Below the pieces are notes generated by a model. The model had not been told where the DNA came from. It worked only from the letters and a program-made list of their open reading frames with translations, and did no database searches. Positions 8,754-34,965 of a DNA stretch of 64,000 bases are shown here, piece after piece. Source of the stretch: Candidatus Parcubacteria bacterium. GTDB lineage: Bacteria; Patescibacteriota; Minisyncoccia; Phycocordibacterales; UBA6065. Both the position numbers and the translations under genes were made by a program. The stretch lies in contig JBDKKJ010000002.1 in the NCBI GenBank assembly GCA_039796155.1, forward strand, positions 31,365 to 95,364, given 5' to 3'. Within the stretch, counting starts at the first letter, position 1, and the number at the start of each line of letters is the position of its first letter.

Positions 8754-8754
8754 G

Positions 8755-9987
8755 ATGTCAAAAAAATCCTTCATATTTTTAATACTCATCATTCTAATCA
8801 TTTTTGGTTTGATTGGTTGGTATTTATACACAACAAAGACAGGTCCACAGGGTACAACTCCAGGTACCACGAATAATGATGATCTTTTTCCTTTTGGTCC
8901 CGGTGGAACAAATAATCAAAACAATGGAACCTCAACATCTGGTGGGGGAGATGGGTTTGTGGATCTCTCAGTAAACGGAGAAGTACGTCTTCCACGACTT
9001 CGCCAGATATCTTTTGTTCCTACAGCAGGTGCAACAGCTTCTTCAACCGCATCTTCAACAATTATTCGTTACATGGAGCGTGCAACGGGACATATTTATG
9101 AAACAGATAGTGAAAATCCAAAGGTGACAAAAATCTCTACTATAACTATTCCAAAAGTGCACGAAGCTCTCTTCACCGCAGACTCAACAAAACTTCTTGT
9201 GCGTTACCTTAACGATTCAACAGGTGCAGTGAGAACTTTCTACGCAAAGATAGCAACAACCACACGCCCAGAACAAGCTATAGAAGGTCTCTTTCTTACA
9301 GATGACATTAAAGATGTAACGGTTTTTGGTAACAAAATCTTCTATCTTTTATGGAGCGATACAAATGAACAGGGGATAGTGTCTGATATGGATGGAAGTT
9401 ACAAAACAGTGGTATTTAATTCGTCATTCGGTGAGTGGACCGCAAACTGGACTTCACAAAATATTATTAACCTATCTTCAAAGCCAAGCAGCGCCGCTCG
9501 TGGTGCTTCGTACATTCTTAACCCGGGAACAGGTAACTATACAAAAATGGTTGGAGACCTTAACGGTCTTGAAACCGTGGCAAATAATGACGGTTCTCTC
9601 ATACTTGTTTCGAACAGCACGACAAATTACTACAGCGCCTCGATTCTTGAAACCAAAACAGGAAAGACCCAAAGACTTGGTCTTTCAACACTCGCTGGAA
9701 AATGTGTATGGAGTAAGAAAGATATAACCACTATTTACTGCGCCGTACCTAAAGAAGCTAACCGAGGATCATATCCTGACGATTGGTATAAAGGTAAAAT
9801 GTCATTCGACGACAGTCTTTGGAAAATAAATGCGGTCAGTGGTGAAACAACCGAAATTCTTACCCCGGAACTCAGCACAGGAACCTCAATGGATATAATG
9901 AAGCTTAGTCTCGACCAGAAGGAGAATGTGATCCTCTTTACGAACAAGAAGGATATGACGACATGGAGATACAATCTCGTAGAATAA
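8755..9987 (+). CDS. membrane-anchored protein with Gly/Thr/Asn-rich linker and beta-rich ectodomain
   Basis: N-terminal TM (FIFLILIILIIFGLIGWYLY) then low-complexity GT/N-rich stretch; ATG at 8755 (MSKKS) preferred over 8722 to avoid overlap. Confidence 0.45.
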   Translation: MSKKSFIFLILIILIIFGLIGWYLYTTKTGPQGTTPGTTNNDDLFPFGPGGTNNQNNGTSTSGGGDGFVDLSVNGEVRLPRLRQISFVPTAGATASSTASSTIIRYMERATGHIYETDSENPKVTKISTITIPKVHEALFTADSTKLLVRYLNDSTGAVRTFYAKIATTTRPEQAIEGLFLTDDIKDVTVFGNKIFYLLWSDTNEQGIVSDMDGSYKTVVFNSSFGEWTANWTSQNIINLSSKPSSAARGASYILNPGTGNYTKMVGDLNGLETVANNDGSLILVSNSTTNYYSASILETKTGKTQRLGLSTLAGKCVWSKKDITTIYCAVPKEANRGSYPDDWYKGKMSFDDSLWKINAVSGETTEILTPELSTGTSMDIMKLSLDQKENVILFTNKKDMTTWRYNLVE

Positions 9988-14149: not shown

Positions 14150-14401
14150 GTGTTTAACATTTCTGATTATTTTAAGAAGTTTACCAAGATTGAGAAGGAG
14201 GGTTTAGTTGAAAGTGACGCTATTTTATCGGCACTTAATGAATCATGTGGGACGGGGACTGTGCGGTTTGAGATAAAAAAAGACATTCTTTATATTAAAG
14301 GATCACCGGTTCTTAAATCGGCACTGTATACCAAAAAGTCTCAAATACTGGCTTCAATAAAGAAAAAATTACCTCAAAGCAGAATTGTGGATATTAGGTA
14401 A
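14150..14401 (+). CDS. small hypothetical protein (possibly DUF721-like) downstream of dnaN
   Basis: 83 aa; position analogous to the small dnaN-associated genes of other bacteria; weak pattern similarity only. Confidence 0.3.
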   Translation: MFNISDYFKKFTKIEKEGLVESDAILSALNESCGTGTVRFEIKKDILYIKGSPVLKSALYTKKSQILASIKKKLPQSRIVDIR

Positions 14402-14403
14402 AT

Positions 14404-14432
14404 AAAAAACCGAGCACATGCTCGGTTTTTTA
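14404..14432. terminator. bidirectional rho-independent terminator
   Basis: Hairpin ccgagcacatgctcgg plus T6, between convergent genes. Confidence 0.65.
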
Positions 14433-14435
14433 TTC

Positions 14436-16985
14436 TTAATTATCAAGCGCTACAGAGAAGGTTCCCGTCACTTCGCTTTTGTTAAAGACTGAATCGTACG
14501 CCGTGATTCTGATTTGGTTACTTTCCTGAATTCCTGAAATATCTTTAGGGTTAAATCTAAACATAAATGGTTGAGACTCAATTATCCCAACAAAGACATC
14601 ATTAACATAAAGGGTTGCTTTTGCGAGAGGGTATCGACCAGCAGAAGAAAGAGGAATAGCAATTGTATCGTTCAGTGTATATTTTGCATCATTCACACTT
14701 TGAATATTCACCTTAAATATATTTACCGCAGTGTGAACATCATCTGTTTGTTTTGGTATAACAGATTCATCCTGGTCGACATACTTGTTTTCCTCCGCCC
14801 ATTTACGCACAGGAGCCTCCCAGCGCTCGAATTGAGGGTCGTCTTGAGGGTTTGTTGGTTGTGCACCCAACGGATCAGCCTTGTTCAACCAGTAGAGTAT
14901 TGAGTGAACAGAAGTTATGGCAACATCTTTGCGTGTTTCTGGTGGTGTGAGGTCGGTGGCAAGCTTTTTTGAAATAGTATCAATAGTGTATGTTTTTCCT
15001 CCTTGCCAAATACCTTTCATAACAGGTTTGAGAGTGGTTGGATCTGCTGGATTTGGTGGGGTGAATCGTTCATCGCTTACAGAAGCCAATCCTTGTTTCA
15101 TAAACGAACTCCACATTGGTGCAACAATCTGACCTGCAACCTTTTTAACCATGGGGCTGTTATCGTTGTTTCCAGCCCATACACCTACAACAAGGTTTGG
15201 GGTATATCCCACGGTCCATGCATCACGTGAATCGTTTGTGGTACCTGTTTTAGCCGCTACATCACGTGTAGGGAAGTGGAGAACAGAGTTTGGACCATAC
15301 CCTGGTGTTCGTGCCACATTGTCACTAAGGATGCTTGAAATAGTTCGTGCTGTTTCTGCGGGTAGAACCTGATTTTGTCTTTGTGAAGGAATAGAAATTT
15401 CAGTACCTTTCGAATCAAAAATCTGAAGAACTGGTCGGCTAGCAACTCGAACCCCGTCGTTAGCAAAAATTCCATATGCGCTGGTCATTTCAAGAAGAGA
15501 GACTTCGCCACCTCCGAGCACGAGGGTTAGACCGTATTGATCTGCATTAGTGAGGCTGGTAATACCCATGTTTTTAGCCAACGTAATAGAATTTTTGATA
15601 CCCGCAAGGTAAAGAGTTTTAATAGCAGGAATGTTGATTGATTGAGCAAGGGCGTCACGGAGAGTTATTGGCCCACGGAAATTATCGTCGTAGTTGCCAG
15701 GCATGTAACATTGCTTTGGATCGCCTTCTGGATCGAGTGGTTTTCCTTCGAGATCACAGGTTGTTGAGAACGAGGTTTGGAGATCAAACAAAACCGTCTC
15801 GGGTGTGTAACCTTTATTAAAGGCTTCTGCATAGATAATAGGCTTCATTGTTGAGCCCGGTTGGCGGTTTGCTGCAACCGCAACATTAAATTGACCATCA
15901 ATTATTTTGTCGAAGTAATCACGAGAACCAACCATCGAAAGAATGTCTCCGTTGTGTGGGTTTATTGCTATGAGGGCTGCGTTTGTAGCGTTAAAATCCG
16001 TTGTATTTTTAAGAGCGGTGGTTTTTACAAGGTCTTCTGCTTTTTCCTGAAGGTTGGCATCGAGCGTGGTGATAACTTTGTAACCCCCATCATCAAGCGA
16101 CCCTTTGCCGAGTATGTTTTCAAGATAGTCTTTAACAAAGAAAACAAAATGAGGTGCTTTTATACCAAACCGTCCTTGGGGTTGGAAGACAACCTTCTCT
16201 TTGAGAGCGTTTTTGTATTCAGTGGTGTTGATCGCGGCTGTATCAAGCATTTTTTTCAGCACGAGATTTTTTCGAGCTTCAAGTTTTTCTTTATTTTTTC
16301 CGTATGGTGAATAGAAGGTGCTTGCCTGGGGAATGGCGGCCAGGTATGCGGCTTCGGCAAGTGTTATGTCTTTAGCCGTCTTGCTAAAGAATTGCTTTGA
16401 AGCTTCTTCTACACCGTACACGTTGCCTCCATAAGGGTTTTCGTTGAGATAGCTTGTGAGAATGGTGTCTTTTGGTAGTGCGCTGTCGAGTTTTACGGCA
16501 AGAACCCACTCCTTTAATTTTCGAGAAATAGTTTTGTCTCCCGTCAAAAGTGTGTTCTTTACCACCTGTTGGGTGATAGTTGAACCTCCTTGGCTGTATC
16601 CACCACTTACAACATTTGCCAATACCGCACGCATGATTGAGGAAATTTTAATTCCTTTGTGGATATAGAAATCTTCGTCTTCGATTGCCACTGTTGCCTT
16701 CTTGATAAAAGGGGAGATATCGGCAGAGATAAGAATGGTTCGTTTTATGCTGTCGTGGAGGTCGTAGAGAAGCACTTTTCCGGTTCGATCAAAGATTTTT
16801 GTTGATTCAGAAACTTTTCGCTGTTCAAACGATGACAGGTCGGGGAGGCGGAATGATGAAATCCAGAGTGTACCAGCGCCGAAGCAGAGAAAAAAGATGG
16901 ATAGAATGACAACAGCGATGTCTTTTTTGGTGTGCGCTTTTATATGATGCTTTATTTTTTTAAAAATACTTTTTTTCTTAGACAT
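14436..16985 (-). CDS. class A penicillin-binding protein 1A (transglycosylase/transpeptidase)
   Basis: N-terminal TM anchor, GT51 motifs (EDxxFxxHxG, GGSTITQQ), transpeptidase domain, 849 aa. Confidence 0.85.
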   Translation of the reverse strand: MSKKKSIFKKIKHHIKAHTKKDIAVVILSIFFLCFGAGTLWISSFRLPDLSSFEQRKVSESTKIFDRTGKVLLYDLHDSIKRTILISADISPFIKKATVAIEDEDFYIHKGIKISSIMRAVLANVVSGGYSQGGSTITQQVVKNTLLTGDKTISRKLKEWVLAVKLDSALPKDTILTSYLNENPYGGNVYGVEEASKQFFSKTAKDITLAEAAYLAAIPQASTFYSPYGKNKEKLEARKNLVLKKMLDTAAINTTEYKNALKEKVVFQPQGRFGIKAPHFVFFVKDYLENILGKGSLDDGGYKVITTLDANLQEKAEDLVKTTALKNTTDFNATNAALIAINPHNGDILSMVGSRDYFDKIIDGQFNVAVAANRQPGSTMKPIIYAEAFNKGYTPETVLFDLQTSFSTTCDLEGKPLDPEGDPKQCYMPGNYDDNFRGPITLRDALAQSINIPAIKTLYLAGIKNSITLAKNMGITSLTNADQYGLTLVLGGGEVSLLEMTSAYGIFANDGVRVASRPVLQIFDSKGTEISIPSQRQNQVLPAETARTISSILSDNVARTPGYGPNSVLHFPTRDVAAKTGTTNDSRDAWTVGYTPNLVVGVWAGNNDNSPMVKKVAGQIVAPMWSSFMKQGLASVSDERFTPPNPADPTTLKPVMKGIWQGGKTYTIDTISKKLATDLTPPETRKDVAITSVHSILYWLNKADPLGAQPTNPQDDPQFERWEAPVRKWAEENKYVDQDESVIPKQTDDVHTAVNIFKVNIQSVNDAKYTLNDTIAIPLSSAGRYPLAKATLYVNDVFVGIIESQPFMFRFNPKDISGIQESNQIRITAYDSVFNKSEVTGTFSVALDN

Positions 16986-17053
16986 GGGCTTACGATATCA
17001 CTGAATGAAAAGCCTCACAAGACAACAAAATACCGCCATGTTAAAGTAAATCC

Positions 17054-18280
17054 ATGAAATTTTTTACGGCTCAAACAAAGGTTAATACAAACCCACAGGA
17101 CATAGAAAACTTCCTCGGAAGAGGTGTTGAAAATGTGTTTCCCTCAAAGGATGCTTTTGCTAAAGCGCTTGCTTCAGGAAAACGTCTTTCAATATATCTT
17201 GGTATTGATCCAACGGGTCCTACGCTCCATATGGGCCATGCTATACCACTCATGAAGCTTTCCACTCTTCAGGCCATGGGACATCAAATCATTCTTCTGA
17301 TGGGTGATTTCACTGCAATGATAGGGGATCCTACTGATAAGGCAGCTACTCGAAAGCGCCTTACACGAGATGAGATACTTTTAAACCTTACGCACTACAA
17401 GGAACAGGCTGAAACATTTCTTTCTTTTAAAGGAAGCAATGCAGCAAAAATAAAGTTCAACAGCACATGGCTTGGCAAGATGAGTTTTGCTGATGTTGTT
17501 GATTTAGCTTCACACACGACTGTTCAGCAAATGCTTGAACGAGACATGTTTGATAATCGCATGAAGGAAAATAAGCCAATATACCTTCATGAATTTCTAT
17601 ATCCTTTGATGCAAGGTTACGATTCTGTGGCTATGGATGTGGATGCAGAGATTGGTGGTAATGATCAAACCTTTAACATGCTTGCAGGACGTAATCTCAT
17701 GCGAACCCTCAAGAACAAAGAGAAATTTGTGCTTGCTACAAAGCTCCTCGTCGATCCAACAGGTAAAAAGATGGGTAAGTCAGAGGGGAACATGATTACT
17801 CTTGCTGACACAGCAAAAGATATGTTTGGAAAGATTATGAGTTGGCCGGACTCTTTGATTGTTCCAAGCTTCGAACTCTGTACCAAGGTTACTGCTGAAG
17901 AGATTGAAAAGGAAAAAGCGTATCTTGCGTCAGGTGCAAATCCTCGTGATGCAAAGGTGCGTCTCGCACTTGCAGTGGTTGAACTTTATTACGGAAAGAG
18001 TGAGGCGGAAAAATCTCGAGATTCTTTTGCATCAGCATTTTCTGCAGGAACAATGCCGACGGACGCTTTGGAGGTAAAGGTTGAAAAAGGTGCCTCGCTT
18101 TCTCAGATTTTGATTGATAATAAAATCGTGGCTTCAAAGACTGAATTTAGAAAACTTGTGGGTGAAAAGGCTGTGAAGGATGTGGCTACGGGAAAGGTGG
18201 TTGAAGCACACGACGCTCTTGTGGAAGGAAATATGGATATAAAAGTAGGGAAGATGAGGTTCCTAAAGATTCGAGTGTAA
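17054..18280 (+). CDS. tyrS: tyrosyl-tRNA synthetase
   Basis: HIGH-class motif 'TLHMGH', 'IGDPT', 'KMGKS', C-terminal S4-like domain; 408 aa. Confidence 0.85.
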   Translation: MKFFTAQTKVNTNPQDIENFLGRGVENVFPSKDAFAKALASGKRLSIYLGIDPTGPTLHMGHAIPLMKLSTLQAMGHQIILLMGDFTAMIGDPTDKAATRKRLTRDEILLNLTHYKEQAETFLSFKGSNAAKIKFNSTWLGKMSFADVVDLASHTTVQQMLERDMFDNRMKENKPIYLHEFLYPLMQGYDSVAMDVDAEIGGNDQTFNMLAGRNLMRTLKNKEKFVLATKLLVDPTGKKMGKSEGNMITLADTAKDMFGKIMSWPDSLIVPSFELCTKVTAEEIEKEKAYLASGANPRDAKVRLALAVVELYYGKSEAEKSRDSFASAFSAGTMPTDALEVKVEKGASLSQILIDNKIVASKTEFRKLVGEKAVKDVATGKVVEAHDALVEGNMDIKVGKMRFLKIRV

Positions 18281-18284
18281 GTAA

Positions 18285-18314
18285 AACAAAAACCGCACAT
18301 GTGCGGTTTTTGTT
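18285..18314. terminator. rho-independent terminator
   Basis: Hairpin aaccgcacatgtgcggtt plus T-run after tyrS. Confidence 0.6.
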
Positions 18315-18542
18315 TTACCAACTCTCTTCTTCGTCTGTCATGAAGTCTTTGAGCGGATCATCCTCGTCTTCTTCGTTCTCAAGCGAATCATCAACATCAG
18401 CATCGTCTGTTGCTTCATCGTCATCACTTGCGACCTTCTTGGGGCTTGGATCATCACTTTCCTCTGTCTCTTCCTTCTCCTCTTCTTTAACGGCGGTCTT
18501 TGGTGCTATGACCTCGTCTTTTTCTGTTTTCTTTCGTGGCAT
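18315..18542 (-). CDS. highly acidic small protein (hypothetical)
   Basis: 75-aa ORF, D/E-rich C-terminal half; co-directional with ruvC; coding status uncertain. Confidence 0.3.
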   Translation of the reverse strand: MPRKKTEKDEVIAPKTAVKEEEKEETEESDDPSPKKVASDDDEATDDADVDDSLENEEDEDDPLKDFMTDEEESW

Positions 18543-18622
18543 ATAACTTTTTGGTTTCTAAGTGCCTCTATTTGTAACAGATATGAATTTTTTTGCAAAT
18601 TTTTGCCTCTGTGGAAAAGTCC

Positions 18623-19102
18623 TTAGGAGAATCTTTCGGTCGCAAAGCAGGTAAGCCCTACAGCAATAGCATCGTATTCATCGTCATGTTTTATCTCTTT
18701 TGTGAGCTTTATAAGGCGTGGAATCATCGAAATAATTTGATCTTTATCGCTTTTTCCATAGCCGGTAACAGCTACTTTAATCTGCCCTGGTCCGTATTCG
18801 TATACGGGGAGATTGTGAGTCGCTGCTTGATATAAAATCACTCCGCGTGCCTCAGCGACGGTTATGGCCGTCTTTTGATTGTTACTAAAGAAAAGATTTT
18901 CGAGAGCAAGTGCGCTCGGGTTGTGTTCTTCGATTATCTTTTTAATCTCATTTCCTATGAGACCGAGACGTTCGTGATGGGGCAGGTTTTTGGATGTTCT
19001 AAAACAATCTGAATACACTAAAACTTCCTTCGAACGAAGTTCTTTTTCTATTACTGCTATACCGAGTCGTTCGTATCCCGGGTCAATTGAGATGATTCTC
19101 AT
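18623..19102 (-). CDS. ruvC: Holliday junction resolvase RuvC
   Basis: MRIISIDPGYERLGIAV… N-terminus, 159 aa. Confidence 0.8.
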   Translation of the reverse strand: MRIISIDPGYERLGIAVIEKELRSKEVLVYSDCFRTSKNLPHHERLGLIGNEIKKIIEEHNPSALALENLFFSNNQKTAITVAEARGVILYQAATHNLPVYEYGPGQIKVAVTGYGKSDKDQIISMIPRLIKLTKEIKHDDEYDAIAVGLTCFATERFS

Positions 19103-19111
19103 CTCTCTATT

Positions 19112-19639
19112 CTACTCTACGTTTGTATAGACTTCCTGTACCTCTTCACTTGCATCGAGTGCATCAATAAGTTTCTCAAGGAGTACAAGGTCTTCATCGG
19201 AGAGCTCAACAGTCATGGTCGGTTTCCAGGCTGTGCCTTCACGGGTGAAAGCCCACGCAGCACTACCAATAGCCGCAAGCTCATAGCCATTTGCGGTGAG
19301 AATGTGTTTTACCTCCTGTGCCGCTTTGTTTTTATTCGTTGTAAGGGCTTCGATAATAAGCGCGCATCCACCAGGGCCATATGCTTCATAGAGGATTGAT
19401 TCAAGGGAAGTCCCTGGTTCACCACCTTTTTTGATGGCACGCTCAATAACTTCGTTGGTTACGTCCTCTGCTTTAGCACGATCAATAATTGCACGCAGGC
19501 TTGGTGCGTTTTTATCACTTTTTACTTTCTGTGCCTCAGCTGAAATCAATTTTGAGTAGCGAGAATAAAGTTTAGACTTTGCTCCATCTGTTTTCGCTTT
19601 CTTTCGTTTAATTTGTGACCATTTATTATGTCCTGACAT
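19112..19639 (-). CDS. yebC: YebC/PmpR family DNA-binding transcriptional regulator
   Basis: MSGHNKWSQIKRKKA… signature N-terminus (internal ATG preferred over 19669). Confidence 0.8.
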   Translation of the reverse strand: MSGHNKWSQIKRKKAKTDGAKSKLYSRYSKLISAEAQKVKSDKNAPSLRAIIDRAKAEDVTNEVIERAIKKGGEPGTSLESILYEAYGPGGCALIIEALTTNKNKAAQEVKHILTANGYELAAIGSAAWAFTREGTAWKPTMTVELSDEDLVLLEKLIDALDASEEVQEVYTNVE

Positions 19640-26797: not shown

Positions 26798-27514
26798 ATG
26801 CTTTACGTCATTTACGGAACAGATATTGAAAAAGCGCGCGAAAAGTCACATGCGCTTTTTAATGCGCTCCGTGAAAAGAAACCAGATGCATCCGCGGGCA
26901 CGCTTACCGCCGACAGTGTCACTCCTGAAAAAATCGAAGAGCTCACACAGACACAGGGTCTTTTTGAGAATAAACAAATTCTCTTTATGGATCGTACGCT
27001 TGAGAATAAAGATGCGCGCGAAGTCATGCTTGATAAAATTGATGCTATTGCCGAGTCACCAAACATCTTTATTTTCTTTGAGGGTAAGCTTACTAAAGAA
27101 GTTTTAAAGAAACTCGAGAAGCATGCCGAAAAAGTAACTGAATATGAATCAGAGACCGAAAAACCAAAAGAGGTGGGGAGTTTCTTTGCCCTTGCTGATG
27201 CATTAGGCGCACGAGACAAGAAACGTCTATGGATGTTGTATCGAGACGCGATTGATAAAGAAGCGGTTCCTGAAGAAATTCATGGAATACTTTTCTGGCA
27301 GGCAAAGGCACTTGCTCTCGCACAAAAGACATCTACTGCGGGTGAAGCGGGTCTCAATCCGTTTGTATACAGCAAAGCAAAACGATATGTCTCTAACTTT
27401 AAAGAAGGGGAGATAGATACCATGGTATCGAGATTGGTCCACATGTATCACAAAGCGCACCGAGGCCAGGTTGATTTTGAGATTGAACTTGAAAAATTCG
27501 CTCTCGACCTCTAA
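26798..27514 (+). CDS. hypothetical protein, possibly DNA polymerase III delta subunit-like
   Basis: 238 aa; N-terminal MLYVIYGTD… and overall helical pattern reminiscent of HolA; weak. Confidence 0.3.
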   Translation: MLYVIYGTDIEKAREKSHALFNALREKKPDASAGTLTADSVTPEKIEELTQTQGLFENKQILFMDRTLENKDAREVMLDKIDAIAESPNIFIFFEGKLTKEVLKKLEKHAEKVTEYESETEKPKEVGSFFALADALGARDKKRLWMLYRDAIDKEAVPEEIHGILFWQAKALALAQKTSTAGEAGLNPFVYSKAKRYVSNFKEGEIDTMVSRLVHMYHKAHRGQVDFEIELEKFALDL

Positions 27515-27582
27515 ATCATTGAGATTTGAGGGTTTTGTGGTATTATCGGTTTCATTCCGCGGGTGCTTAAAATTCAATACAT

Positions 27583-27655
27583 CCGCCCATAGCTCAGTCG
27601 GTAGAGCAGCTCCCTTTTAAGGAGAAGGTCGTTGGTTCGATTCCAACTGGGCGGA
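27583..27655 (+). tRNA. tRNA-Lys (anticodon TTT)
   Basis: Manual cloverleaf: acceptor ccgccca/tgggcgg, D-arm tagctcagtcggtagagc, anticodon loop cTTTTaa, T-arm gttggttcgattccaac; CCA not encoded. Confidence 0.85.
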
Positions 27656-27739
27656 CACTCATGCGATAGGTTCGGAGTCCGAGAGGGTCTATGCAACTTT
27701 TTGTAGTTTCTTTATTCGCTAATCTGATATTATTTTTGT

Positions 27740-29179
27740 ATGGACGAAAGCAACAAGGAAAAATTAGCAGTCTTACTCAACACTGAAGAGTGGCAAGTTT
27801 TCGAGTGTAAGGGTGCGGCAATAAAGCCTGCAAAGCTCATGGAGACCGTTATTGCTTTTGCTAATACCAACGGCGGCACAATTGTCATCGGTCTAGAAGA
27901 TCCCAAGAAAGCAACAGGTGAAAAAAGATTATTAGGAATAAGTAAATATGCCGACAATGTATCGAGCTTTTTGGCTCTTCTTGCAAAAGATATAGAGCCA
28001 CCACTTATAGATTTTTCTCACGAAGAATTTGAGATAACAAATGTAGAGGGTAAGGCAGACAAGCTTATTCTCTTTAGGATAGATAAAAGCGATGATGTGC
28101 ATTCGCTAAAGAATGGAGATACCTATGTAAGAAAGGGTAATCAGAATCAGAAAATCGGCGCTTCTGAAATAATTCGGCTAAAGTACGAAAAGGGCTCGAT
28201 CAAGTTCGAATCTGAGATGTCTAATTTGGATCAATTTGATGATGTTGATACTGATTTACTAAAAAAGTTTAAAGATGATACCGACGGTAAAGGTAGTGAT
28301 TGGCAATTCTTTAAAGACAACGGCCTCGCTATAAAGAAGCGCAACAAGTTCTTTTTAACCAAAGGCGGAGGACTGCTCTTCGGAAAGAATCCATCTGTTC
28401 TTCTTGGTAGTAAATCGAGCATAAAAATATCAAGATTCTTTGGTACGAAACAATCATTCACCGGTACGCCGAATTTGGTTCATAAACCACTTACTCTCGA
28501 AGGTCCTCTTTTGCTACAAATAACTGCCGCTGTTGATTATTTCAGGCAAGTGGTTAGGACGTCTCCTCCAAAACTCAGTGGTTCAACATTCAAGCCAAGT
28601 CTGCTTATTCCTGAGTCGGCATTCCAAGAGGCCGTAACCAATGCCGTGATACATAGAAATTATTCTATACAGAATGATATTCAGGTTAGATTTTTTGATG
28701 ACCATATTGAGATCGAAAGCCCGGGAACATATCCTGGACACGTTACTCCTGCGAACATAAGGCGAGAACGATTCGCCCGTAATCCGATAATTCAGAGAAC
28801 TCTAAATCGGTTTGGTGATGCTCCGAACTTGGATATCGGAGAGGGAGTGGACCGTATGTTCAAGGTTATGAAGCAAAAGAACTTGTATGAGCCGCTTTAT
28901 CAGCCAGCAACTCTGTTTCCAAATTCCGTGATGGTGGTCTTGTTTAATCTTCAAAAAATGGAGGCTTGGGATACGGTAAGCAATTATCTCGATAAGAATT
29001 TAAAGATTACTAACGAGCAGTCGAGAAATATCACAGGTATCACTGATACAGTAAAGATGTCACGTCTTTTCAAACAGTGGGTTGAAAATGGTCTTTTAAA
29101 AAAGGCAGAAGGAAGATCCAAAAGGGATATGTATTATTACAAGGCGGGGCAGGAGCTTTCTGCGGTTCTATTTTCATAG
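27740..29179 (+). CDS. AlbA_2 (Schlafen-like) DNA-binding domain / HATPase_c_4-like putative regulator
   Basis: N-terminus …WQVFECKGAAIKPAKLMETVIAFANTNGGTIVIGLED… resembles the 'divergent AAA/AlbA_2' domain; C-terminal half resembles the ATPase-like domain that accompanies it. Confidence 0.45.
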   Translation: MDESNKEKLAVLLNTEEWQVFECKGAAIKPAKLMETVIAFANTNGGTIVIGLEDPKKATGEKRLLGISKYADNVSSFLALLAKDIEPPLIDFSHEEFEITNVEGKADKLILFRIDKSDDVHSLKNGDTYVRKGNQNQKIGASEIIRLKYEKGSIKFESEMSNLDQFDDVDTDLLKKFKDDTDGKGSDWQFFKDNGLAIKKRNKFFLTKGGGLLFGKNPSVLLGSKSSIKISRFFGTKQSFTGTPNLVHKPLTLEGPLLLQITAAVDYFRQVVRTSPPKLSGSTFKPSLLIPESAFQEAVTNAVIHRNYSIQNDIQVRFFDDHIEIESPGTYPGHVTPANIRRERFARNPIIQRTLNRFGDAPNLDIGEGVDRMFKVMKQKNLYEPLYQPATLFPNSVMVVLFNLQKMEAWDTVSNYLDKNLKITNEQSRNITGITDTVKMSRLFKQWVENGLLKKAEGRSKRDMYYYKAGQELSAVLFS

Positions 29180-29229
29180 GCCTTGATAATAAAACCTTAA
29201 TACCTATAAAGGCCTAAAAATAAGGCTAT

Positions 29230-30579
29230 TTAGGAATCTTCATTTTCACAGGCCTTTTCAGCTAATTTGATTTGTTTATTCGCGAGTAGGATTTTACTCC
29301 TCAAACATCCTAACAGTTCTCGTTTTTCCACCATCGTTCCTTCCCGTAAAACATATTTTGCATAATTTCGTATATCGATATCTTCGACTTTGATCACTTT
29401 AGTTTTCACGCCAAGCATCGCTGATTGAAACCTCTTGTTTCGTTCGATTTCCGTTTTGATTTTCTCTTTCATACCTATCTCATTGAGGTCGATTGTATCG
29501 GCCACAGACGTTAGTTGTTCTATAAGAGCCTCTTCCGATATATAGCCACCTTTGCACGCTTTATCATTGTACTTGGTGCAACCGTAGTAGACGTATCGAT
29601 GTATGTTGCCGTTCTTCTGTTTCTTGAACTTCTCGTCGGCCGTGATGCCTGAGCCGCAGAGCCCACAGCTCATGAGCTTGGTGAAGGCGAATTCCTTGCT
29701 CTCTACCCGTATGACATGCTGACTTATAGCTCCCTGTACCTTGTCGAAAAGATCCTTTGATATGAGCGGCTCATGCTTGCCTTGATACCAGTTACCGCTT
29801 CCTCGTGGATATTCGAATGTACCGTAATAGAAATGGTTGCGGAGGATCAGATATACATTGGAGAGGGTGAGGGGTTTGTCATATCGCGATTTGAAATGCA
29901 TGTCGTCTTTGAGCCATGAATAGATTTTACGGCCGCTATACCCCTCATATGCCACCTTATGGAATATCTGCTGGATTATTGCCCCTCTCTTCGGATCAAT
30001 CTTAATCTGGCAACATTCATCCTTGTTCTTTGAATTGATATAGCCTGTGGGCGCTACGCAGGGCCAGAGGCCCATCTCGACTCTGGCTCGGAGGCCTCTC
30101 TTCACATTGATGCGACGGTTATCATTTTCAAGTTTTGCTTGTGAGCCGAGAATCATGAGGAGGAACTTTTCATTCGGGTTATTAGTGAATCTCTGCCCAT
30201 ACGTTCTGATTTCTATGAGCTTACCCGCATCCATGAGATCGACGATTCGACCAAGGTCGCCTGCGTTTCTCGATATACGATCCGGTGCCCATGTGAGTAT
30301 TCCGTTGAACTTTCCCGTTTTTATTTCCTCCACGATCTCATTGAATACCGGCCTCTGCCCAGTTTCCTTGGCTGAATGTGACTCCTTTTTTATCTCCGTT
30401 ATGTCGAGCTTCTCGCTATCAGCAAGGCGAAGCATCTCCTTGATCTGCGAGTCGATGGAAAGTACCTGCTGTTCCTCTGATTCCGTCGATTTCCTCGCGT
30501 ACAGGCAGTATTTCATCTTTATAGGAACTACTATTTTGGCCGGGGTCCCTAAAGGCGCTTGTATCGTATTGTTGTTCAT
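29230..30579 (-). CDS. large serine recombinase (resolvase/integrase family)
   Basis: N-terminal catalytic domain (YARKSTESEEQQ…SIDSQ…WAPDRISRN), recombinase domain, C-terminal Cys-rich zinc ribbon and coiled-coil; 449 aa (true start may be the internal ATG at ~30516). Confidence 0.8.
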   Translation of the reverse strand: MNNNTIQAPLGTPAKIVVPIKMKYCLYARKSTESEEQQVLSIDSQIKEMLRLADSEKLDITEIKKESHSAKETGQRPVFNEIVEEIKTGKFNGILTWAPDRISRNAGDLGRIVDLMDAGKLIEIRTYGQRFTNNPNEKFLLMILGSQAKLENDNRRINVKRGLRARVEMGLWPCVAPTGYINSKNKDECCQIKIDPKRGAIIQQIFHKVAYEGYSGRKIYSWLKDDMHFKSRYDKPLTLSNVYLILRNHFYYGTFEYPRGSGNWYQGKHEPLISKDLFDKVQGAISQHVIRVESKEFAFTKLMSCGLCGSGITADEKFKKQKNGNIHRYVYYGCTKYNDKACKGGYISEEALIEQLTSVADTIDLNEIGMKEKIKTEIERNKRFQSAMLGVKTKVIKVEDIDIRNYAKYVLREGTMVEKRELLGCLRSKILLANKQIKLAEKACENEDS

Positions 30580-30668
30580 ACATACAAGGGATGACGCAGA
30601 CCCGTTAGGGAGTCAAGGAGGGAAGTGTTGGTAATAAGCCTTGTTTAAAGCCATTTTTAAAATATTGT

Positions 30669-30697
30669 CTTGACAAGTAGCTCTACAATGTATATAA
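30669..30697 (+). promoter_or_regulatory. consensus sigma70-type promoter upstream of the DGR target gene
   Basis: TTGACA (30669-30674), 17-nt spacer, TATAAT (30692-30697). Confidence 0.45.
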
Positions 30698-30729
30698 TAT
30701 AATAGTAAGTTCTTTGATATTACTTGCAT

Positions 30730-30780
30730 GTAGTCATAGCCAAAAGGCCTTATTTCATGAGGCTTCCTGGCTATGACTAC
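30730..30780. repeat. 12-bp perfect inverted repeat in the 5' leader of the DGR target gene
   Basis: gtagtcatagcc (30730-30741) / ggctatgactac (30769-30780) with 27-nt spacer. Confidence 0.6.
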
Positions 30781-30854
30781 CACTACGGTGATCAAGCTCA
30801 ACCAATCGAGCATGCTTCTTAACGAAGCTCGCTCAAAACAGGGAAAGTAATACC

Positions 30855-31511
30855 ATGAATAACATATTCACAATGAGTCAGGGCGCCGGCCAAAAACTTG
30901 AATTCGCGTTCGAACGCAACGACGGAAACACGTCGGACTTGGACTGGCTGTCGACGGGTGAAAACCTCAAGTCGGTCATCCTGCTCGCGCGAGGCGAGGC
31001 GGAATTAACCGTTAAGGCCAAACCTGTCCCAACTCCTGAATCTAAGGTTGCGAGCGACACCATCATCCGTGTCGACCGCTCGGTCAAGCCAACCTATCCC
31101 GACTGGGTGAAGGAAGTCCTTCATCCTGATCTGGAAAAGTCCGGCCCGACCGAATATAGCATCGCCACAATCGACCAATGGCTCCACGAAGGCCAGAAGA
31201 ATGGCAAATGGACCACGGGCAACGTGATCTATGCAAACCTGAAGGACAACGATGAGGTAGCCCTCAAAACCTGTCTCGGACTGCGCGACCTTGAAGAAAT
31301 CCAAAAGAAAGGCATCGCCTTTTTCCGGAAATACTTCAAGGGCAAAGCAGTATTTGGATGGGCTGGTGCTGTGCGGAACCGTCGCGACGACCTGAGTGCC
31401 CCGTATCTCTGCGAGCGCGGTGACGAGGTTGTCCTCGGCTGGAGCTGGGCTGACGGCAGTTGGAGCGGCAACGTTCCAGCTCTCCGCCACGCAAGTAGTC
31501 CTCAAGCCTAA
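30855..31511 (+). CDS. DGR target protein with C-terminal variable region (C-type-lectin-like VR)
   Basis: 218 aa; last ~42 codons (VRNRRDDLSAPYLCERGDEVVLGWSWADGSWSGNVPALRHA) correspond to the VR matched by the downstream TR; markedly GC-rich relative to surroundings. Confidence 0.7.
   Translation: MNNIFTMSQGAGQKLEFAFERNDGNTSDLDWLSTGENLKSVILLARGEAELTVKAKPVPTPESKVASDTIIRVDRSVKPTYPDWVKEVLHPDLEKSGPTEYSIATIDQWLHEGQKNGKWTTGNVIYANLKDNDEVALKTCLGLRDLEEIQKKGIAFFRKYFKGKAVFGWAGAVRNRRDDLSAPYLCERGDEVVLGWSWADGSWSGNVPALRHASSPQA
31370..31494 (+). repeat. DGR variable region (VR)
   Basis: 125-bp near-repeat of 31892-32016; 18 mismatches, every one at a position where the TR has adenine. Confidence 0.8.
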
Positions 31512-31544
31512 GACACTGAGATTTAGCTCTTTGTACTTAGTTCT

Positions 31545-31585
31545 TAGCCCGGCGTCGCGCAAGCGATGTCCGGGCTAATTTTTTA
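31545..31585 (+). terminator. GC-rich hairpin with GCAA tetraloop plus T-run immediately downstream of VR (terminator / DGR-associated hairpin)
   Basis: tagcccggcgtcgc-GCAA-gcgatgtccgggcta followed by ttttttatt. Confidence 0.55.
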
Positions 31586-31891
31586 TTAAAATAATGAACG
31601 AAGTGAATATATTTTCATTATCCCCTTTGGGGATTTTTTATATATCGATATATAATAATTTCGGTAGTAGGCGAATCTGCCGGCGGTTACGGCTTCTGGC
31701 GGCCGAATCCAGTATCCATGCGCTGAGAGCGAAGGAGATTAAGATTTCTTTCGGAGGGCGCATGCAGACACTTCAAAAAATGAAGCTACTTGGTGCAGAA
31801 TGCTATGGCATTATGATGCCGAATACGATTCAACCCTGAGATCGGCGTGGGCCTTCAAGGGGTGGTGGCATGGAAAGCATTGTGCACGTAG

Positions 31892-32016
31892 TGTGCGGAA
31901 CCGTAACGACAACCTGAATGCCCCGTATCTCTACGAGAACGGTGACAAGGTTGTCCTCAACTGGAACTGGACTGACAACAATTGGAACGGCAACAATCCA
32001 GCTCTCCGCCACGCAA
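31892..32016 (+). repeat. DGR template repeat (TR)
   Basis: Adenine-rich (AAC codons) copy of VR; non-coding template; ORF-track entries overlapping it (31800..32114, 31918..32355) are shadow ORFs. Confidence 0.8.
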
Positions 32017-32021
32017 CTCGC

Positions 32022-32384
32022 TCATTTCTCTCTGGCTTTGGCTGGGGAGTTTTGTTTGACAAGTTGCCCACTCCATCCTCCGAGGTTTCGGCCAATCTCA
32101 TCAAGTTTCACTGAGAGCTCAATATACTTCTTGTCGTCGAGAGACTTAACTTCCCAAAGAATCATGAGTAAGACATTAAGTGCGTCGAGCTTGCGTATGG
32201 CCAGACGAACGTATGGATATTTTTCCTGGGACGATAGGAAACTGGCGGCGGCGATAGCCTCGATCGCTTCAATAAACAAAGAATCTATGCGATATCCAAA
32301 TGAGTATCTGTCTTGTTTCGGTATATCATTACAAAATCCATGCCACAACAAATAAGTCTCTTTGATTTTCCGCATGACGGGCAA
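32022..32384 (-). CDS. avd: Avd-like accessory variability determinant (four-helix-bundle family), encoded antisense to TR-RT
   Basis: 120 aa; …DRYSFGYRIDSLFIEAIEAIAAAS… and C-terminal EIGRNLGGWSGQLVKQ resemble Bordetella phage bAvd (…EVGRILGSWIARVNRK) from memory; basic C-terminus. Confidence 0.5.
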   Translation of the reverse strand: MPVMRKIKETYLLWHGFCNDIPKQDRYSFGYRIDSLFIEAIEAIAAASFLSSQEKYPYVRLAIRKLDALNVLLMILWEVKSLDDKKYIELSVKLDEIGRNLGGWSGQLVKQNSPAKAREK

Positions 32385-33417
32385 GATTCCGTTGGGGGGG
32401 GGTTCGCCTCAGGGTTCCGGCCACATCAAATGTATTCATACCTACAAGGATATCATTTCTCTTGAAAATCTACTTGAAGCATGGAAAGAATTTAGAAATG
32501 GCAAGCGCAAAAGGAGAGATGTTTTAGAATTCGAGAGGGACCTCATGCAAAACATCATTTCGCTTCATGATGACTTGGTCGCAAAATCTTATAGACACGC
32601 TCATTACAAAGCATTTAAAATAAACGATCCGAAGCCGAGAGATATCCATAAAGCCACGGTGCGTGACAGGTTGTTACATCATGCAATCTATAGGAAACTC
32701 TATCCATTTTTTGATAAAACATTTATTACCGATTCATATTCATGCAGGATGGGTAAGGGGACGCATAAAGCTCTCGACAGATTTAGAAATTTTGCAGGGA
32801 AAGTATCAAAAAATCATACACGTACAGCTTGGGTTCTCAAATGTGATATACGCAAGTTTTTCGCATCAATAGATCAAAAAATCCTGGTATCGATTCTTGA
32901 AAATTATATATCTGACAAGGATATTATTAATCTTTTTTCGCACATCATCAGTAGTTTCCATTCCACAGTGAAAAACGTTGGCCTTCCTCTTGGAAATCTT
33001 ACATCGCAGCTCCTAGTGAATATATACATGAACAGGTTCGATCGGTTCATGAAACACAAATTAAAAACAAAATATTATATCCGTTACGCTGATGATTTTG
33101 TTATCTTGTCTTGCGACAGGATGTATCTCAAAGGATTGATTTCGCTCATCTCGAATTTTTTGAAAGATAGCTTAAAATTGAGGTTACATCCTGATAAAGT
33201 GTTCATAAAGACGTCTGCTTCCGGTGTTGATTTTCTAGGGTGGGTACATTTTTCCAATCATCGAATATTAAGAACAAGTGCAAGGAAAAGAATGATGAGG
33301 AATATCAGGAAGAACTGTGGAAAATCTGAGTCCGTGCAGTCATATCTTGGACTCATACAACACGGCAATTCCTATAAACTTACAAAGGAAATAAGCAGCT
33401 TGACTGTCTTTTTATAG
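32362..33417 (+). CDS. DGR-type reverse transcriptase
   Basis: RT motifs including YADD (YIRYADDFVILS) and the DGR-diagnostic 'LPLGNLTSQLLVNIYMN' (SQ in place of group-II-intron QGxxxSP); 351 aa; directly downstream of TR. Confidence 0.85.
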   Translation: MIFRMTGKIPLGGGSPQGSGHIKCIHTYKDIISLENLLEAWKEFRNGKRKRRDVLEFERDLMQNIISLHDDLVAKSYRHAHYKAFKINDPKPRDIHKATVRDRLLHHAIYRKLYPFFDKTFITDSYSCRMGKGTHKALDRFRNFAGKVSKNHTRTAWVLKCDIRKFFASIDQKILVSILENYISDKDIINLFSHIISSFHSTVKNVGLPLGNLTSQLLVNIYMNRFDRFMKHKLKTKYYIRYADDFVILSCDRMYLKGLISLISNFLKDSLKLRLHPDKVFIKTSASGVDFLGWVHFSNHRILRTSARKRMMRNIRKNCGKSESVQSYLGLIQHGNSYKLTKEISSLTVFL

Positions 33418-33672
33418 TGTCCACTCTGTCCACTTTCCCTGTAAATGAGACACTGTCAAAATATGGCATAGGAGTGTCTCATTTGTCTCATTCACACGAA
33501 TATTAGCCCTATTACGGCACAAATGTGACAGTCATAAGACACGTATAAAAGTGTCGGATTTGTCGGATTTTGACCCGACCGACTTGCTTCATCGCCCAGA
33601 GCCGAGCATAATCCAAAGTATCCTTATGAAGTCTCACTTTACAATTTCCGAGACCGATTCGGGGGACAGATA

Positions 33673-33702
33673 CAAAAACCACAGAGAGATCTGTGGTTTT
33701 TG
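33673..33702. terminator. bidirectional terminator between RT and BI-1 genes
   Basis: Hairpin ccacagagagatctgtgg flanked by A-run and T-run. Confidence 0.55.
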
Positions 33703-33719
33703 ATTTCTAGGATGTTTTT

Positions 33720-34409
33720 CTATCTTCTTTTACCAAAAATTCTCAGTAGTTTAAGGAATAGGTTTATAAAATCAAGGTAAAGGCTAAGGGCCCCCATAAT
33801 TGATTCTTTTTTATCCTGATCAGAAGCCGCGTTGCCTATAACATTATAATTTTTAATTTTCTGAACATCGTATGCAATAAGCGCGGTGAAAATAAGTATT
33901 CCAACGTATGTAATAACCCAATCGAGCCGCGGATTATTGAGAAACATATTAGCGATAGAGGCGAGTATAATTCCCCAAAGTCCCATAAGTGCAATGTTGC
34001 CGGTTGAAGTTAGATCTCTTTTTGTAACGTACCCATAAAGACTCATACCACCAAACATTCCCGCAGTAATCAAAAATGTTGTACCGATAGATGAGAGGGT
34101 GTAGACGAGGAATATGACCGAGAACGTAATCCCGTTTAAGATTGCATAGAGAACAAAAACGATCGCGGCCTGTGTGCTGGTTATGTGAGTAATTGCCTTT
34201 GAGAGATAGATCACGGCACCAAGTTCCAAGAGAATCAGGATGAAAAAAGTGATTTGGTTACCAATGAATATATTCACTAAAGACTGATTGCTAAAGACAA
34301 TAAACGAGGTAATAGCTGTAACTGAGAGACCAGCAAACATCCAGAGATAGACTCTGTTTATAAAGCTTACGGTTTCGAGTTTAGCCGATTCAACAGTAAC
34401 TTCATTCAT
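33720..34409 (-). CDS. Bax inhibitor-1/YccA family membrane protein
   Basis: 7 TM, conserved C-terminal …LDWVITYVGILIFTALIAYDVQKI… motif; 229 aa. Confidence 0.7.
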   Translation of the reverse strand: MNEVTVESAKLETVSFINRVYLWMFAGLSVTAITSFIVFSNQSLVNIFIGNQITFFILILLELGAVIYLSKAITHITSTQAAIVFVLYAILNGITFSVIFLVYTLSSIGTTFLITAGMFGGMSLYGYVTKRDLTSTGNIALMGLWGIILASIANMFLNNPRLDWVITYVGILIFTALIAYDVQKIKNYNVIGNAASDQDKKESIMGALSLYLDFINLFLKLLRIFGKRR

Positions 34410-34488: not shown

Positions 34489-34965
34489 ATGGCACGACAA
34501 ACCTATTTACTCCTCCACGATATCCGTTCCGTCTACAATGTCGGCGCTATTTTTCGTACTGCTGATGCTGTGGGTGTAACAAAAATATATCTCACTGGGT
34601 ATACACCAACCCCTGTTGATCGTTTCAATCAACCGCGTCCAGATTTTGCTAAATGCGCTCTCGGTTCTGAAAAAACTGTTGCTTGGGAATATGCGAAATC
34701 ACCAACAGCACTCATCACTCGGCTCAAAAAAGAGGGGATTCAGGTAATTGCTGTAGAGCAAAGCAAAACATCTATTGATTATAAAAAAGTAAAACCAGCA
34801 CAGAAAACTCTGGTGGTACTAGGTAATGAGGTGACAGGTGTTTCAAAATCTATACTTAAAAAATCAGATATCATCGCAGAAATACCTATGCGGGGCATGA
34901 AGGAATCGCTCAATGTGTCGGTGTCTGCGGGAATAGTACTCTTTAGACTTTTTGATAAAGCCTAG
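34489..34965 (+). CDS. SpoU/TrmH family RNA 2'-O-methyltransferase
   Basis: …LLHDIRSVYNVGAIFRTADAVGV… and C-terminal SPOUT knot motifs; 158 aa. Confidence 0.7.
   Translation: MARQTYLLLHDIRSVYNVGAIFRTADAVGVTKIYLTGYTPTPVDRFNQPRPDFAKCALGSEKTVAWEYAKSPTALITRLKKEGIQVIAVEQSKTSIDYKKVKPAQKTLVVLGNEVTGVSKSILKKSDIIAEIPMRGMKESLNVSVSAGIVLFRLFDKA

Follow-up and report, generated by a model that had tools for sequence, protein, structure and literature searches.

Introduction

What has been inserted directly behind the tRNA-Lys gene of a Patescibacteria (Paceibacterota/Parcubacteria) genome, and by which enzyme, is the question raised by a 64-kb stretch of DNA, here called the window, whose positions serve as coordinates throughout. 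The gene order is holA, tRNA-Lys(UUU), a gene with AlbA_2 and HATPase_c_4 domains, a gene encoding a large serine recombinase (LSR), a diversity-generating retroelement (DGR), BI-1 and SpoU. An earlier note on this DNA had described the succession of tRNA-Lys, AlbA_2 gene, convergent LSR and DGR, and all of these features were found where it had placed them. The comparison with related genomes indicates that the segment 27658-33668 is quite probably an integrated element whose family occurs throughout the Patescibacteria and moves by means of a compact LSR. Islands at tRNA genes are well known, and so are mobile elements that carry DGRs. The unusual feature is the pairing of enzyme and target, namely a serine integrase with a tRNA gene.

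The interval from holA to SpoU was compared across 80 relatives collected through PolA, and L-numbers (L006, L197, L090 and so on) are the labels of compared relatives or loci. The PolA protein of the window is 83% identical to that of a Paceibacterota metagenome-assembled genome and 94% identical to that of a JGI contig.

Insertion Borders at tRNA-Lys

The features that define the borders are as follows.

27583-27656, plus strand: tRNA-Lys(UUU), a host gene whose 3' end is predicted to form attB (B arm)
27650-27657, plus strand: left core copy GGCGGACA; attL junction after 27657
27658-27690, plus strand: tRNA-proximal element end (P' arm) CTCATGCGATAGGTTCGGAGTCCGAGAGGGTC, containing the left 19-mer of the earlier note
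33418-33668, plus strand: far-end region R, ending in the terminal arm TTTCCGAGACCGATTCGGGGGACA (P arm) and containing the right 19-mer
33661-33668, plus strand: right core copy GGGGGACA; attR junction after 33668
33674-33701, bidirectional: terminator hairpin in the host flank (B' side), native 3' trailer of tRNA-Lys
Predicted empty attB: GGTTCGATTCCAACTGGGCGGACAGATACAAAAACCACAGAG
Predicted excised attP junction: TTTCCGAGACCGATTCGGGGGACACTCATGCGATAGGTTCGGAG
Predicted extent of the sites: attB, 27610-27657 joined to 33669-33710; attP, about 33620-33668 joined to 27658-27700

Comparison of synteny, which had been suggested as a check, brought out the empty junction in two forms. In L007, L010, L011 and L012, the tRNA-Lys gene with the same promoter lies 0-27 bp from the start codon of SpoU, and in L009 and several more distant relatives, the terminator hairpin and a conserved trailer stand directly 3' of tRNA-Lys. 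The unoccupied site of L009 reads tRNA-Lys ...GGGCGGACA|AGCGTTAAGAAAACC-hairpin-GGTTTTTAGCTTGTCCGAGGCGGAGCG. In the window, L197 and L008, the end of the tRNA (...GGGCGGACA) is followed by CTCATGYGATAGGTTCGGAGTCCGAGA, and the terminator and trailer of tRNA-Lys are displaced to the right of ...TTCGGGGGACA. The right end of the island reads ...TTCGGGGGACA|AGCTAAAACC-hairpin-GGTTTTAGCTTGTCCGAGCCGCAGC in L197 and L008, and ...GGGGGACA|GATACAAAAACC-hairpin in the window. The insertion is thus precise relative to the unoccupied site, with tRNA|terminator in L009 and tRNA|P'...R|terminator in L197, L008 and the window. A homologous hairpin lies directly 3' of tRNA-Lys in L009, L016, L053, L062, L080 and L081, the same hairpin is found 3' of R in L197 and L008, and divergence among the sequences begins right after ...GGGGGACA. 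In effect, the triplet of attB, attL and attR places the predicted insertion at 27658-33668, a length of 6,011 bp.

The core shared by the junctions is an imperfect 8 bp, GG(C/G)GGACA, located 1-2 nt beyond the discriminator base of tRNA-Lys. A repeat of the tRNA 3' end of at least 12 bp was absent from the far side in the window and in 36 of 37 family loci. The sole case among the 37 is a 19-bp repeat in L110, and clear tRNA 3' fragments are present in L108 and L110. On the PolA tree, occupied and empty genomes are interspersed, so that repeated gain or loss at the site is required. Taken together with the exact junctions, and with the occurrence of the LSR-DGR module also at tRNA-Arg in L090, these empty sites bear out the proposal that the segment was acquired on a small integrative element.

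The Large Serine Recombinase and Its Family

29230-30516, minus strand (open reading frame extendable to 30579): LSR, 428 aa from M22, predicted integrase

The LSR is the sole recombinase of the island. Its Pfam domains are Resolvase (PF00239, 6e-21), Recombinase (PF07508, 9e-15) and Zn_ribbon_recom (PF13408, 1e-8), and approximately 90 residues follow C-terminally to the zinc ribbon. Sequence inspection found the catalytic motifs intact (YARKS(31)TES and DRISR), and the Cys pairs of the zinc ribbon are present (CGLCG and YYGC...C). The protein matches PHROG 95 'integrase' at 2e-60, and its nearest solved structure is SPbeta SprA (E=2e-12), but it is only ~25% identical to any cultured-phage integrase. 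By these features, the predicted enzyme is of the integrase type and not a small resolvase. The earlier note had allowed that the recombinase might turn out to be a resolvase of unrelated function, which the intact YARKS and DRISR motifs, recombinase domain and zinc ribbon speak against.

The enzyme belongs to a large family, with more than 425 metagenomic stretches encoding proteins 60-74% identical to it and 23 loci in IMG/VR. Neighbourhoods were counted over 103 LSR loci. Within 6 kb on the 3' side of the LSR, 43 convergent and 2 co-oriented tRNA genes were found, and on the 5' side, only two in ~400 kb. The tRNAs at these loci are Gln, Ser, Lys, Arg, Trp, Asp and Tyr. The distance from the 3' end of the LSR gene to attL is 1.6 kb in the window and 95-190 bp in other family members.

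Larger members of the family, 9-15 kb in length, carry ParB-methylase, large terminase, HNH/VRR-NUC, PD-(D/E)XK, DNA methylase and T5orf172 genes; L101 and L111, for instance, have genes for the large terminase (TerL), ParB-methylase, HNH/VRR-NUC and PD-(D/E)XK. Because of this terminase, ParB-methylase and nuclease content, the family looks prophage- or satellite-derived, and the suggestion of the earlier note that the element might come from a phage is a reasonable one. In the window island, no packaging, structural, replication or transfer genes were detected with Pfam. The larger relatives look like small prophages or phage satellites, and the window copy like a stripped-down, minimal member. 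In the close relative L006 (PolA 83%), an unrelated LSR, 34% identical, abuts the same tRNA.

Terminal Arms and the Far-End Region

Two 19-mers had been put forward as possible remnants of att sites, and their positions, 27671-27689 and 33647-33665, were verified. Their similarity is weak by itself, as is the dyad symmetry between P and P'. The comparison nevertheless puts both of them into conserved termini of the element: they coincide with the two terminal arms, and because both arms recur across the element family, the two motifs lie in real element ends.

At the tRNA side, the P' motif occurs directly after a convergent tRNA in at least 17 unrelated LSR loci and also in L008, L194 and L197. 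This motif of ~30 bp reads A(G/C)TCATGTGAGACCTACCGAG or ACTCATGTGATAGGTTCnnnnGACCGAGA. It starts at the tRNA end for Gln, Lys, Arg and Tyr, with a variant at Ser and Asp loci. Loci without a called tRNA have, in front of the motif, either a tRNA truncated at the contig end or a degenerate fragment of a tRNA 3' end.

The far end is formed by a conserved region of ~250 bp, R, which is shared by the window, L008 and L197. It contains tandem TGTCnnnnT pairs, a 12-bp inverted repeat (33443-33454 / 33473-33484), a GACCGA block and the terminal arm. The direct repeats are TGTCCACT x2 at 33418-33434, GTCTCATT x2 at 33476-33492 and TGTCGGATTT x2 at 33552-33570; both the short tandem repeats and the 12-bp hairpin had been described correctly for 33418-33660. 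In the profile built from this region, tandem TGTCnnnnT pairs are followed by a GACCGAGA block, ACCCTTA, and a terminal TYCGAGACCGA leading into a tRNA-acceptor-like end. The profile matches 2.8-10 kb 5' of the LSR in L101, L105, L111, L120, L139, L159, L167 and L090, on the 5' side of the LSR only and in one orientation only. Within the window island, the P' and R profiles match once each; the one addition is a weak, partial match of the R profile (E=0.012) to positions 33443-33492 of the R region. An inverted copy of the tRNA-proximal motif was not found at the far end.

The B and P arms are identical at 13 of 26 positions, a value reached by 35 of 5000 shuffles, and the P, P' and B arms each have TCGGA or TCGAA at a distance of 15-19 nt from the centre. 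The idea that the R end is a decayed tRNA was tried and rejected: the covariance-model search of Rfam gave no tRNA hit at E<=10, local alignment was no better than shuffles, and only the ungapped arm comparison rose above chance. R was likewise rejected as a known RNA family, the only match being a sub-threshold, terminator-driven one to the rimP leader.

The TGTCnnnnT pairs were observed in the window (33418-33570) and in R of L101, L105, L111, L167 and L181. Their variable bases differ between elements and are the same within a pair (TGTCGCATT x2, TGTCCCATT x2, TGTCTCATT x2). In this respect, they resemble iterons or operator sites and may serve an element-specific DNA-binding protein. A separate observation concerns the distant relative L093 (coordinates 8594-8616 and 3045-3071), which has an LSR element at tRNA-Arg(GCG) and, right after its tRNA-Lys(UUU), a lone tRNA-proximal motif with no element behind it, apparently the scar of a lost element.

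The Diversity-Generating Retroelement

The DGR occupies the far part of the island, and its components are listed below.

30670-30698, plus strand: sigma-70 promoter TTGACA-17-TATAAT, a perfect consensus, upstream of the DGR target
30855-31511, plus strand: DGR target gene, 218 aa (gene callers start at 30873), GC-rich, with a C-terminal variable repeat
31370-31494, plus strand: variable repeat (VR)
31892-32016, plus strand: template repeat (TR)
32022-32384, minus strand: Avd (NF033474 1e-14 and PF22296 5e-8, both below curated cut-offs; PHROG 3206 4e-13)
32362-33417, plus strand: DGR reverse transcriptase (RT), RVT_1 in Pfam, PHROG 1423 4e-106

The RT gene starts 346 nt 3' of TR. In the core of the TR/VR pair, 18 of 18 mismatches fall at TR adenines. 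A comparison of the window with L194 shows one difference among the 125 TR positions and 20 differences between the VRs, each of the 20 again at a TR adenine. From this pattern, the DGR is concluded to be active, rewriting the C-terminal surface, probably C-type-lectin-like, of a small protein. The target protein itself has no Pfam family and gives weak fold matches.

The target gene had been described as conspicuously GC-rich. Its GC content of 0.553 and its GC content at third codon positions (GC3) of 0.644 correspond to z-values of about +5 and +6.5 relative to 41 other window genes (0.426+-0.025 and 0.378+-0.041, respectively), in agreement with that description. The LSR is also atypical (GC3 0.533, z ~ +3.8). 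The composition of the AlbA_2, RT and BI-1 genes is host-like. Therefore, the scan of composition proposed earlier set apart the target and the LSR, but not AlbA_2 and RT.

The distant relative L090 has the RT-Avd-TR-target-LSR order of the window beside tRNA-Arg, with the R end present. The targets of L090 and L050 were considered as homologues of the window target and rejected, as the similarity is limited to the VR scaffold. Cassettes of the same target family also exist away from any LSR, and only a small part of the LSR loci carries a DGR (counts are given below), so that the DGR is to be regarded as captured cargo rather than a hallmark of the family.

Several further observations were made on this cassette. 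The Avd gene is opposite in strand to TR and RT and lies between them, its start overlapping that of RT by 23 nt; the same opposite-strand layout occurs in L050, L070, L194-L197 and L243-L247. The leader of the target gene (30730-30780) contains an imperfect inverted repeat with 24-nt arms, 83% complementarity and a 3-nt loop, which may be regulatory. A Logan contig, L193 (SRR35626842), ends at 31407 inside VR, and VR and TR have no common 31-mer; the break may reflect VR heterogeneity in the population, or merely low coverage.

The Cargo Slot and the History of the Island

27740-29179, plus strand: gene for a protein with AlbA_2 (Schlafen-type) and HATPase_c_4 domains (Pfam), 479 aa, in the cargo slot

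The AlbA_2 protein matches PHROG 12156 over its full length (4e-97) and, in PADLOC, partially matches a model of an AlbA_2-bearing prokaryotic Argonaute (pAgo). Its gene fills a slot between the P' arm and the 3' end of the LSR gene, whose content differs between relatives. L194 (PolA 94%) has the island at the same site, with the LSR and the target 91% and Avd 99% identical to those of the window. Its slot of 1.5 kb contains a different AlbA_2/HATPase_c_4 gene, only 33% identical, between flanks that are 92-97% identical (window 27716-29260 against L194 5539-7118). L197 (PolA 84%) retains the DGR and carries in the slot a SocA_Panacea gene with a 126-aa open reading frame, a toxin-antitoxin-like pair. 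In L008, the slot holds DUF3800, the LSR is reduced to a remnant, and a second, tandem element with a pilin-Lcl_C gene follows. Judged from these differences, the slot looks like a hot spot at which cassettes with defence- or toxin-antitoxin-type genes are exchanged. The island has been vertically inherited in at least three species, represented by the window, L194 and L197.

The LSR gene of L197 has two in-frame stop codons. It was observed that this LSR (8361-9692; also in L198) has 91% amino acid identity to the window LSR, compared with 84% for PolA and 72% for RT. The alternatives are a recent inactivation and an exchange of the recombinase segment at a time after the host genomes had diverged.

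In L008, two tandem elements lie between tRNA-Lys and SpoU (14385-19205). The second encodes a type IV pilin-like protein with Lcl_C (DUF1566) and has no RT. Lcl_C (DUF1566) is a common fold of DGR targets. The segment between the two elements is a host-type trailer, and it is missing in the sister L010, which suggests that flanking DNA was carried along from another host.

Proposed Mechanism and Alternative Explanations

According to the interpretation favoured here, the LSR would have recombined an attP, in which the R-end arm ...TTTCCGAGACCGATTCGGGGGACA was joined to CTCATGYGATAGGTTCGGAGTCCGAGA..., with a host attB at the 3' extremity of tRNA-Lys(UUU). The crossover would lie within the core GG(C/G)GGACA, 1-2 nt past the discriminator base, leaving the tRNA whole and moving its terminator to the right end. 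The structure observed in the window comprises, in order, a swappable slot by the tRNA, the gene of the integrase, the entire DGR under a strong promoter of its own, and a terminal region rich in repeats. Entry would have preceded the split of the window species, L194 and L197, with vertical inheritance since then. As the integrase and both arms of the window are intact, excision is predicted to be possible.

A number of results weigh against this interpretation. Within-species occupancy was judged on Logan contigs from five metagenome samples, reached by exact-protein look-ups of holA, BI-1, SpoU and LSR. All five samples were occupied and 100% identical to the window, and no strain-level empty site was found among them. 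The contigs break at the tRNA because this tRNA is common to several species. The earlier note had named the lack of any strain without the segment as a point against its reading; empty sites were found in related species, and none for the window species in these samples. No excised circle or attP junction was found in the assembled contigs and IMG/VR. A generic attP pattern gave 43 hits in IMG/VR, which is chance level, none of them near an LSR, and a pattern specific to the window gave none. Circular contigs were also sought, and 61 whole contigs had no terminal overlaps. A recombination directionality factor was not identified. Moreover, the LSR pseudogene of L197 indicates that the island can persist without mobility. 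The P and P' arms agree at 10 of 26 positions, and 416 of 5000 shuffles are as good, which is not significant alone; the exact crossover and the half-site assignments are inferred positions. On the side of the cargo, the composition of the AlbA_2 and RT genes is that of the host, DGR cassettes of the same target family are found in at least four contexts with no LSR nearby (L195, L243, L244/245 and L246/247), and only 6 of the 103 LSR loci carry a DGR.

Some of these results would also be expected if the island were a dead remnant, that is, an old LSR insertion now fixed, in which the LSR is kept for another role or by chance and the DGR is domesticated by the host. Vertical inheritance in three species (PolA 84-94% identical), the nonsense mutations in the LSR of L197, occupancy in five out of five samples, and the lack of phage or transfer genes in the window copy all fit such a view. 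However, the motifs of the window LSR are all intact, and the protein is 91% identical to the LSRs of both L194 and L197. The state of the ends differs as well: the window has kept its R repeats and both arms intact, but in L197, with its LSR pseudogene, the repeats are eroded. Finally, occupancy is interspersed on the tree. A dead remnant is therefore a possible but rather doubtful explanation.

A composite hot spot, in which a small LSR element entered and the DGR and the AlbA_2 gene arrived separately, as in additive islands, appears unlikely. The mosaic composition, with a GC3-rich target and LSR beside a host-like RT and AlbA_2, would suit a stepwise assembly, as would the LSR-free loci with the same DGR type, the independent swapping of the AlbA_2 slot, and the tandem elements and captured flanking DNA of L008. 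Against this, conserved termini bracket all 6 kb with no second internal junction, given that the P' and R profiles match once each (plus the weak R partial), and L194 and L197, as well as L090 at a different tRNA, share the LSR-target-TR-Avd-RT arrangement in both order and spacing.

That there is no integrative element at all, and that homologous recombination created a hypervariable region in which the serine recombinase is a local invertase or resolvase, would agree with the lack of long direct repeats at the flanks and of an excised form, but is highly improbable, since the three-domain architecture of the LSR is of integrase type, the insertion point is exact against an unoccupied site of the L009 type, no inverted-repeat pair fit as an invertase substrate was found, and neither the strand-specific link to many tRNA genes nor the conserved ends in unrelated hosts can be explained in this way.

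Integration by the LSR thus remains the favoured account of the island, and it can be extended to the family. With a somewhat better than even chance, there is a whole clade of compact LSRs, frequent in Patescibacteria, that has specialised in integrating small prophage- or satellite-like elements at the extreme 3' ends of tRNA genes (Gln, Ser, Lys, Arg, Trp, Asp, Tyr). One arm of its attP would mimic the tRNA 3' end, and the other would contain CATGTGAKA...CGAGA with an adjoining repeat-rich control region, in which TGTCnnnnT pairs co-vary per element. The window would represent a minimal member with an active DGR and a swappable, defence-type slot.

Comparison with Known Systems and Significance

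To our knowledge, characterised LSRs target protein-coding genes or intergenic sites, and tRNA 3'-end targeting is regarded as the preserve of tyrosine integrases. The window LSR shares with serine integrases such as SPbeta SprA, A118/LI Int, phiC31, Bxb1, TP901-1 and SCCmec CcrA/B the serine catalytic domain, the recombinase domain and the zinc ribbon, as well as an integrase gene inside the element (here 1.6 kb from one att) and a short shared core without long repeats. It differs from them in its compact size of 428 aa, its ~25% identity, its target at a tRNA 3' end, and the long repeat-rich region beside one arm. A survey of integrases listed 14 of 297 candidate serine-integrase cases at t(m)RNA genes; according to its authors, this kind of use 'has not been reported previously' and calls for proof by experiment (Mageeney et al. 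2020, PMC7192596).

Tyrosine-integrase islands at tRNA genes (P4-like, Islander-type) resemble the present one in their insertion at tRNA 3' ends, their presence or absence among relatives, their tandem accumulation and decay (here L008 and L108), and an element arm that mimics the tRNA 3' end. In contrast to them, the window island has no tyrosine recombinase, and its direct repeat is only ~8 bp and imperfect; with a crossover past the discriminator base, there would be no tRNA segment to restore. Another parallel is offered by the tycheposons of Prochlorococcus, where a large serine recombinase takes the place of the tyrosine enzyme in 27 of 937 elements (Hackl et al., bioRxiv 10.1101/2020.12.28.424599). 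These are also cargo- or satellite-like elements at specific tRNA genes, with growth beside the tRNA and the greatest variability in the tRNA-proximal part. However, they belong to a different phylum, the serine recombinase is the exception there and the rule in this family, the window copy is without a tyrosine recombinase or replication genes, and the cargo consists of nutrient-uptake genes there and of a DGR and defence-type genes here.

As in other DGRs (BPP-1 Mtd/Avd/Brt, Treponema TvpA, and those of the candidate phyla radiation, CPR), the cassette combines RT, Avd and adenine-only TR/VR mismatches with a VR at the C-terminus of a protein of probable C-type-lectin fold. Unlike them, it has Avd on the opposite strand between TR and RT, a small target of 218 aa, and a serine-integrase island as its vehicle. 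The slot recalls the defence hot spots of P2-like prophages and P4-like satellites, which are likewise short, lie by the attachment site and the integrase, and exchange their content between near-identical elements. The contents found here are AlbA_2 paralogues, SocA_Panacea, DUF3800, and methylases/T5orf172; the likeness is one of position and gene families only, and the defence role of the slot genes is putative.

In the literature searched, with incomplete coverage, no description was found of a tRNA-targeting serine-integrase family in Patescibacteria, or of a DGR on such an element; the LSR element family is apparently widespread and undescribed. For this locus, the comparison settles the region as an acquired island with exact borders, whose DGR is active and was horizontally acquired. 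Serine integrases are valued in genome engineering because their att sites are simple. If the proposed specificity is true, a large natural family recognising tRNA 3' ends would be a source of many additional integrase/att pairs, with landing sites already in place in nearly all genomes. The rule by which tRNA targeting is assigned to tyrosine integrases would then need revision, and DGRs would gain a serine-integrase route between CPR genomes. Patescibacteria have tiny genomes and few recognised mobile elements. For this group, the island indicates a concrete vehicle for DGRs and defence-type genes, whose tRNA-proximal slot exchanges genes between near-identical islands.

Flanking Genes and Additional Observations

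The features outside the island are as follows.

26798-27514: holA, gene left of tRNA-Lys
27519-27546, plus strand: host promoter of tRNA-Lys, TTGAGA-16-TGnTATTAT, outside the element
33720-34409, minus strand: BI-1 (Bax1-I in Pfam), outside the element
34489-34965: SpoU, gene right of BI-1

The promoter block upstream of tRNA-Lys is kept in all relatives, occupied or empty. BI-1, with which ordinary housekeeping had been thought to resume, does lie outside the element, but it is not a conserved gene of the locus: it was found at this place in none of more than 80 related loci, and in L197, SpoU follows ~170 bp beyond R. BI-1 is therefore a lineage-specific neighbour. Its inclusion in the island was considered, as no relative has it and the conserved order resumes at SpoU, and was rejected, because the terminator between R and BI-1 is the native trailer of tRNA-Lys. 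Elsewhere in the window, two open reading frames of 792 aa each were ruled out as a duplication, their sequences being unrelated.

A second indel of the locus is located between holA and the tRNA-Lys promoter, where ~450 bp present in relatives (L006-L012) are missing in the window (27515-27582). In L007, this segment contains a minus-strand open reading frame of ~140 aa. ARAGORN calls the tRNA-Lys of L007, L008, L009, L010, L012 and L014 'tRNA-Stop (tta)'. As the anticodon loop CTTTTAA is the same as that of the window tRNA-Lys(UUU), the call is a register artefact and does not denote a suppressor tRNA.

Just past the tRNA-Lys terminator, a conserved segment of ~100 nt was observed in L009 (6493-6592), L008 (17927-18026) and L197 (13108-13204), with no counterpart in the window. 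It folds as two hairpins, in which 17 of 32 pairs are changed on both sides among only three sequences. Rfam contains no match to it, so that it may represent a small RNA not yet described. The 3' end of this segment (..CGTGACGRCAC) is a second insertion point for elements with the same tRNA-proximal motif (L009 6592, L008 18026).

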